Assembly (NCBI RefSeq): GCF_056746865.1
Contig: NZ_CM163382.1
Length of the DNA: 64,000 nucleotides
Reading direction: 5' to 3' (one strand)
The position numbers and the translations under genes are program-made. Positions 45,793 to 46,440 of the stretch are shown here, in pieces. The notes under the pieces are model-generated. The model saw only the letters and a list, made by a program, of their open reading frames with translations, ran no database searches and was not told where the DNA came from. Positions within the stretch are counted from its first letter, which is position 1. Each line of letters begins with the position of its first letter.

Positions 45793-45918
45793 ACGCTTTT
45801 CCTTGTGGATCTCAACTCGCCAGCACCTATCTTACATGCCGGTCCGTATCAGAGATACTTTTTGAGTGGCTTTGCCGGTGATTAAAAATTAAGGAGGGTG
45901 TAACGACAAGTTGCAGGC

Positions 45919-45941
45919 ACAAAAAAACCACCCGAAGGTGG
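45919..45941 (-). terminator. Rho-independent terminator of the glyW-cysT-leuZ tRNA operon
   Basis: Minus strand: ccacc-ttcg-ggtgg followed by U7, about 45 nt after the leuZ 3' end. Confidence 0.75.
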
Positions 45942-45986
45942 TTTCACGACACTGCTTATTGCTTTGATTTTATTCTTATCTTTCCC

Positions 45987-46073
45987 ATGGTACCCGGAGC
46001 GGGACTTGAACCCGCACAGCGCGAACGCCGAGGGATTTTAAATCCCTTGTGTCTACCGATTCCACCATCCGGG
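45987..46073 (-). tRNA. leuZ: tRNA-Leu (anticodon UAA), 87 nt
   Basis: Reverse complement matches GCCCGGATGGTGGAATCGGTAGACACAAGGGATTTAAAATCCC...GGGTACCA with encoded CCA; coordinates within about 1 nt. Confidence 0.95.
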
Positions 46074-46085
46074 CTCGGGAAGAAA

Positions 46086-46159
46086 GTGGAGGCGCGTTCC
46101 GGAGTCGAACCGGACTAGACGGATTTGCAATCCGCTACATAACCGCTTTGTTAACGCGC
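46086..46159 (-). tRNA. cysT: tRNA-Cys (anticodon GCA), 74 nt
   Basis: Reverse complement GGCGCGTTAACAAAGCGGTTATGTAGCGGATTGCAAATCCGTCTAGTCCGGTTCGACTCCGGAACGCGCCTCCA. Confidence 0.95.
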
Positions 46160-46212
46160 CAAATTCTTCAGGCCTTTCAGCCAGACATCCGCTGACGCCG
46201 ATGTCTTTTAAA

Positions 46213-46288
46213 CTGGAGCGGGAAACGAGACTCGAACTCGCGACCCCGACCTTGGCAAGGTCGTGCTCTACCAACTGAGCTATTCCCG
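46213..46288 (-). tRNA. glyW: tRNA-Gly (anticodon GCC), 76 nt
   Basis: Reverse complement GCGGGAATAGCTCAGTTGGTAGAGCACGACCTTGCCAAGGTCGGGGTCGCGAGTTCGAGTCTCGTTTCCCGCTCCA. Confidence 0.95.
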
Positions 46289-46440
46289 CATTCATCAAGC
46301 AATCAGTTAATCACTTGATTTTATTATCGTCTGGCAATCAGTGCCGCCGTTCGATGCGTTGCATTCTACTTACCTGGCGCGATGAGTCAACGATATTTTT
46401 CACCACTTTTGATCGTTTGCTGAAAATTGCGCCGAAACGA

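Follow-up and report, generated by a model that had tools for sequence, protein, structure and literature searches.

The tRNA gene leuZ has been described as a home of prophages and integrative elements in several Escherichia coli lineages. It is a site of prophage or integrative-element insertion in O121:H19 (PMC8767318), it holds the prophage Sp13 in O157 Sakai (PMC8190617), and in O145:H28 it carries an integrative element designated ‘IE at leuZ’ (PMC7067040). The RNA encoded next to it, 3′ETS-leuZ, pairs with RyhB and acts as a sponge RNA (PMC6191717). In E. coli K-12 MG1655 the genes run in the order tyrP, yecA, 3′ETS-leuZ, leuZ, cysT, glyW, pgsA and uvrC, and the locus is empty.

The DNA analysed here is a 64,000-nucleotide stretch of contig NZ_CM163382.1 (assembly GCF_056746865.1), referred to below as the window. 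Its arrangement around leuZ is that of K-12, with the same gene order, strand and flanks, and with the same absence of any insertion. The att repeat of the P2-like prophage found in STEC (the Sakai Sp13 type, present in strains 2015C-3108 and ATCC 43894) corresponds to window positions 45919–46042; the window has this block as a single attB copy and has none of the ~34 kb of prophage. Similarly, the integrase-borne elements known from leuZ, which comprise defence and resistance islands and the O145:H28 element, use the same target, but no such element is found in the window. We read the interval, at a probability of about 0.95, as an empty site: the intact, single-copy glyW–cysT–leuZ operon of E. 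coli. That emptiness was correctly recognised in the initial annotation; it is an ordinary state of the locus and is already known, as is the role of leuZ as a hotspot.

ARAGORN called three tRNA genes, and no others, across the 64 kb; each is encoded on the minus strand, and the Rfam tRNA model agreed with all three at 54–69 bits (Table 1). The genes for tRNA-Gly(GCC), tRNA-Cys(GCA) and tRNA-Leu(UAA) are co-oriented in that order, with pgsA upstream, yecA downstream and a single strand used throughout. By the list of open reading frames, the interval 45793–46440 coincides to the nucleotide with the space that separates the yecA start codon from the pgsA stop codon. The leuZ sequence does not differ from that of K-12 leuZ, and the distance from its 3′ end (45988) to the yecA start is 195 nt. 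A consensus scan returned one promoter-like site in the interval, where shuffled sequences average 0.7, and its match to the consensus and its position are no more than suggestive of a σ70-like promoter for glyW. Transcription would start at this promoter and terminate at 45921–45945, and processing of the transcript would yield the three tRNAs plus the 3′ETS.

Table 1. Features of the leuZ locus and its flanks, in window coordinates.
Feature	Position	Strand	Evidence or remark
yecA, conserved, 221 aa	45127..45792	-	Pfam UPF0149 (1.7e-36) and SEC-C; annotated in D2 and K-12
attB block of integrase-borne islands, ~135 bp	45911..46045	.	Junction comparison with the window
attB block of P2-like (Sp13-type) prophage, 124 bp	45919..46042	.	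Single copy here; in occupied genomes, a copy at each end of the prophage
3′ETS-leuZ, 67 nt, K-12 small regulatory RNA	45921..45987	-	K-12 ncRNA b4759, directly 3′ of leuZ
leuZ, tRNA-Leu(UAA), 87 nt, CCA encoded	45988..46074	-	ARAGORN; Rfam tRNA, 57.7 bits; K-12 b1909
leuZ anticodon stem-loop	46031..46047 (loop 46036-46042)	-	Common edge of all sampled att duplications
cysT, tRNA-Cys(GCA)	46087..46160	-	ARAGORN; Rfam tRNA, 54 bits; K-12 b1910
glyW, tRNA-Gly(GCC)	46214..46289	-	ARAGORN; Rfam tRNA, 69.1 bits; synteny with K-12 b1911
Promoter-like site upstream of glyW: TTGACT, 16-nt spacer, TAGAAT	46363..46390	-	Consensus scan, 10/12 matches
pgsA, conserved, 182 aa, upstream of operon	46441..46989	-	Pfam CDP-OH_P_transf (6.3e-39); annotated in D2 and K-12

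Window and K-12 agree without a mismatch over 3′ETS-leuZ, and the assignment of this RNA with its terminator to the operon is supported by the identity with K-12 b4759 and by a hairpin followed by a U-run. RNAfold folds residues 45921–45945 into a stem of 9 bp that is capped by a UUCG loop and followed by a U-run, which is a predicted canonical Rho-independent (intrinsic) terminator. A consensus terminator scanner reported none for the locus. Because RNAfold returned a canonical terminator, the scanner miss is judged a false negative; its probable cause is that the stem is able to extend into the U-run. The initial annotation had placed the leuZ 3′ end, a terminator and yecA within about 200 bp of one another, and this description agrees with the predicted hairpin and with the 195-nt distance.

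RNAduplex located a stretch complementary to RyhB and RybB at approximately 45945–45964 of the 3′ETS. As RNAduplex ignores intramolecular structure and for that reason over-extends the pairing, the result serves to locate the stretch and carries no functional weight. An Rfam scan of 45600–46600 returned only the tRNAs above threshold. At the E-value level, STnc130 (26 bits; cut-off 55) and sroD (20 bits; cut-off 50) were considered and rejected; these sub-threshold matches are not 3′ETS-leuZ.

Alignment of positions 45700–46500 with K-12 gave 799 identities in 802 positions. The three differences are two substitutions, C/T at 45876 and G/A at 46429, and the deletion of one nucleotide from the glyW–cysT spacer at 46193; all of them lie in spacers, leaving the tRNAs and the 3′ETS unchanged. 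The best match to the locus query was strain D2, which is also uninterrupted at leuZ and which BLAST aligns with the whole window from end to end at 99.83% identity with a single gap. The D2 genes across the window are ruvB, ruvA, ruvC, aspS, cmoAB, torYZ, cutC, argS, flhEAB, cheZYBR, tap, tar, cheWA, motBA, flhCD, uspC, otsAB, araHGF, ftnB, ftnA, tyrP, yecA, the tRNAs, pgsA, uvrCY, sdiA, tcyNL, dcyD, tcyJ, fliZA, a flagellin gene at the fliC position, fliDST, amyA and yedDEFK. Over this span the D2 annotation contains only housekeeping, chemotaxis and flagellar genes with K-12 names, and integrase, transposase and phage genes are all absent from it.

Insertion at a tRNA gene would be expected to show itself by a repeat of the tRNA 3′ end, and a search of the window for a duplicated 15–25 bp copy had been proposed in the initial annotation. 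This search was run. Across the 64 kb, the leuZ 3′ 25-mer (up to 3 mismatches) and 16-mer (up to 2 mismatches) matched only themselves, and a second copy of the 55-nt leuZ 3′ half (up to 9 substitutions) was absent. For glyW and cysT, the 30 nt at the 3′ end likewise gave only self matches in the window. A BLAST comparison of 45905–46074 with the window at word size 7 returned only chance 9–12-mers and the self-pairing of the anticodon stem of leuZ, where a self-complementary 17-mer is located. The proposed probe falls within the att block and a duplicate would not have escaped it, but it understates the real block, which measures ~124–135 bp and runs from the anticodon loop through the terminator.

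Searches for integrase and foreign DNA gave the same picture. With three tyrosine integrases from the leuZ loci of occupied genomes as queries, tblastn against the window produced nothing significant; the best match, at 62210–62404, had an E-value of 0.012 and 34% identity over 65 aa, with two in-frame stops. As a trace of an integrase this match was rejected and attributed to chance, given its two stop codons and its position at the conserved yedD–yedE junction. Between pgsA and tyrP, a tyrosine-recombinase ORF or pseudogene was looked for and none was found, and no strain-specific DNA is present there. The leuZ–yecA spacer is not longer than in the empty K-12 locus, and GC content in the 45–48 kb region (0.507–0.518) stays at the window norm of ~0.51 with no compositional break. 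An adjacent integrase, an attL/attR repeat, a strain-specific block and a compositional deviation, any of which would mark an occupied site, are thus all lacking. The claim that the locus is unoccupied is confirmed: there is no prophage or island at leuZ, and K-12 empty-state spacing and sequence are retained. As a clean negative, this result identifies the tRNA operon as standard E. coli backbone, and the 64 kb need no mobile-element annotation.

Comparison with other E. coli genomes, which had also been proposed, was made with a 2.1-kb query of the locus. Of 5426 complete E. coli genomes, 3781 have an uninterrupted locus and ~1645 (~30%) an interrupted one, in which the match breaks at window positions 45911–45922, just past the terminator. 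Among the integration sites of E. coli, the leuZ–yecA junction is a major hotspot in heavy use. The suggestion that elements might plausibly integrate at this tRNA is therefore upheld by these counts and by the literature, and more strongly than could have been known from the window. Because the site is interrupted in this share of complete genomes, its empty state is of use in typing strains and in predicting the temperate phages or islands that could still be acquired.

Every occupant inspected is a prophage or an integrase island, and those sampled represent three or more classes of element. In strain 2015C-3108, a ~34-kb P2-like prophage lies between leuZ and yecA with its integrase beside yecA; this integrase–yecA junction is found in 525 genomes, O157:H7 ATCC 43894 among them. 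A second contractile-tail prophage abuts yecA in strains 1442 and AVS0947, and its junction is found in 433 genomes. In strain A65EC the occupant is a ~33-kb island with an arm-type integrase beside leuZ. The integrase–leuZ junction of this island type occurs in 356 genomes and its right end in 333. The Pfam domain Phage_integrase was found in both integrases tested.

The A65EC island contains a type I restriction–modification operon with an embedded ‘YecA family protein’ and a cold-shock-domain protein, as well as Hhe, paired DUF262 proteins and a second integrase. The island of strain KMi006 has the same right end as that of A65EC and a different cargo, comprising tetC/ISVsa5, DUF262, a PD-(D/E)XK nuclease and a restriction endonuclease. 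The leuZ islands of both strains bear cargo of a defence type. The element classes sum to ~1300 of the ~1645 interrupted genomes, and the ~345 that remain outside them could include non-integrase rearrangements or assembly breaks. In a single genome, probes that contain the att block match as many as 4 places, consistent with tandem arrays in some strains.

Junctions in five occupied genomes define the edges of the duplicated block. On the yecA side, identity with the window spans terminator, 3′ETS and the 3′ portion of leuZ and ends at 46042 in the P2-like prophage, at 46045 in the A65EC island, at 46043 in the KMi006 island and at 46043 in both genomes with the second prophage. All five boundaries lie at the 5′ edge of the leuZ anticodon loop, which would mark one limit of the region open to strand exchange. 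On the leuZ side two junctions were mapped, and identity extends to 45919 in the P2-like prophage (100%) and to 45911 in the island, ending 2–10 nt past the annotated 3′ETS-leuZ and terminator. The att block thus reaches ~70–77 bp beyond the tRNA 3′ end and spans the whole 3′ETS and the terminator.

In the P2-like prophage, the leuZ side follows the window from 45919 rightwards and the yecA side follows it up to 46042; the 124 bp in between are identical at every position (124/124) to both att copies that flank the prophage. In the islands the edge of the duplication lies at 46043–46045, and a complete leuZ, 3′ETS and terminator are regenerated. The island-derived att copy differs from the window by a 2-nt deletion and two substitutions. 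These changes fall at window-equivalent positions ~45969–45982, between the tRNA end and the RyhB/RybB-complementary stretch, and that stretch itself is the same in the island-derived copy.

The block from 45911/45919 to 46042/46045 is the attB of several families of tyrosine-integrase elements in other E. coli. Given the shared boundary and what is generally known of tyrosine integrases that target tRNA genes, we infer that strand exchange takes place at or near the leuZ anticodon loop. The elements carry in attP their own copy of leuZ from the anticodon loop onwards, together with the whole 3′ETS and the terminator, so that insertion rebuilds a complete leuZ. Full-length leuZ, spacer and terminator are restored on one side, and a 55–58-nt 3′ fragment of leuZ is left beside yecA. 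Because the block in the window is present in a single copy and is 100% identical to both P2-like att copies, it appears to be a naive attB that is competent by sequence, and the strain could presumably be lysogenised there; the boundaries of the block are common to the five occupied genomes. The two mapped blocks can serve directly as a probe of whether the site is occupied in other assemblies.

A homologous block is also present in phage DNA. In the free lambdoid phage mEp390, xis and int are followed by an attP annotated as a ‘putative prophage insertion site’, which is 87% identical to window positions 45922–46052; an mEp390-like prophage is absent from the window. Because this free phage carries xis, int and attP with the homologous block, its gene arrangement shows that the att block is already phage-borne before integration. 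Several further phage records carry the att block. Williams is said to have described, in 2002, tyrosine integrases that integrate at an anticodon-loop sublocation of tRNA genes. The block in the window resembles that class, as it likewise takes in the gene from the 5′ edge of the loop up to and including the 3′ end, restoring the tRNA, but it differs in extending unusually far past the tRNA 3′ end.

An empty site may have a history. Excision by integrase and excisionase restores attB exactly, and the complete identity of the P2-like att copies with the window means that no trace of such an event would persist. Both species-wide and inside STEC lineages (PMC7067040, PMC8190617), occupied sites are patchily distributed, which implies frequent gain and loss. 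The site might therefore have been occupied by an element that was then precisely excised, or the leuZ 3′ half and the 3′ETS might be element-derived leftovers, the emptiness being secondary in either case. Positive evidence for such a past is lacking, however, and D2, at 99.83% identity, is also uninterrupted, so that former occupancy is judged improbable; it would in any event leave the content of the window as it is. That the site was never occupied is not claimable, because integration followed by precise excision gives the same sequence.

Two further readings concern the present state of the DNA. Remnants that have lost their integrase are common at tRNA sites, and a decayed island or prophage whose integrase can no longer be recognised might have been overlooked in the locus or close to it; the weak island-integrase match 16 kb away, at 62210–62404, could be taken as a sign of one. 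The 195-nt leuZ–yecA interval and the near-identity with K-12 leave no room for it, however, an att duplicate is absent, the collinear D2 genes all bear K-12 names, and the weak match contains two stops in the conserved yedD–yedE region. The odds of an overlooked remnant are vanishingly small, and this reading is effectively refuted. It is also very improbable that the site looks intact and is empty since it is unusable in this strain, for example through an attB polymorphism. The three intergenic polymorphisms relative to K-12 are all that might be brought forward for this, and supporting evidence proper is lacking; all three fall outside the 45911–46045 block, and the block is 100% identical to K-12 and to the P2-like att copies. 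The intact operon with a naive, empty attB is the preferred reading.

The far end of the att homology lies close to the terminator, and this raises a regulatory question. It is conceivable, if rather unlikely, that the position of this end reflects selection on the elements to rebuild leuZ together with the RyhB/RybB sponge RNA and the terminator, and that the variant in the island-derived copy alters processing or sponge dosage. Were this the case, island carriage would have a regulatory side effect on the iron and envelope sRNA networks, and several hundred genomes with the island-type junction would be affected (356 by the integrase–leuZ junction). The question concerns the island-type 3′ETS-leuZ of other genomes and not the window, which itself holds nothing novel.

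From the unoccupied locus, the initial annotation had concluded that the window is core genome. This was examined across the 5426 genomes by counting a segment as present where at least 80% of it was covered in one place. Segment 22001–45918 was present in 5348 genomes (98.6%) and segment 46043–64000 in 5358 (98.7%), and for these two the conclusion stands. For segment 1–22000 the count was at least 4674 (at least 86%), and this query matched a median of 33 places per genome through REP-like repeats; the lower share may be a counting artefact. In segment 46043–64000 most genomes were covered only to 85–97%, and the annotated H-type flagellins differ between matches. The incomplete coverage is attributed to allelic variation of fliC (~56280–57625).

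The region from flhE to flhD (~17400–33500) is not universal in E. coli, because in strain A134_1EC an IS1 lies between yecT and uspC and the flhEAB–che–mot–flhCD block is gone. The description of the 64-kb window as core genome is thus right in large part; it needs qualifying for the fliC allele and for the flh–che region, the latter having been lost through IS1 in at least one strain. In the uspC–flhD intergenic region of the window (33147–33925), no IS is present according to the transposase-free, collinear D2 annotation. The flhDC regulatory region is a known IS target. The lowest GC content in the window, 0.371 at 33001–34000, coincides with this regulatory region.
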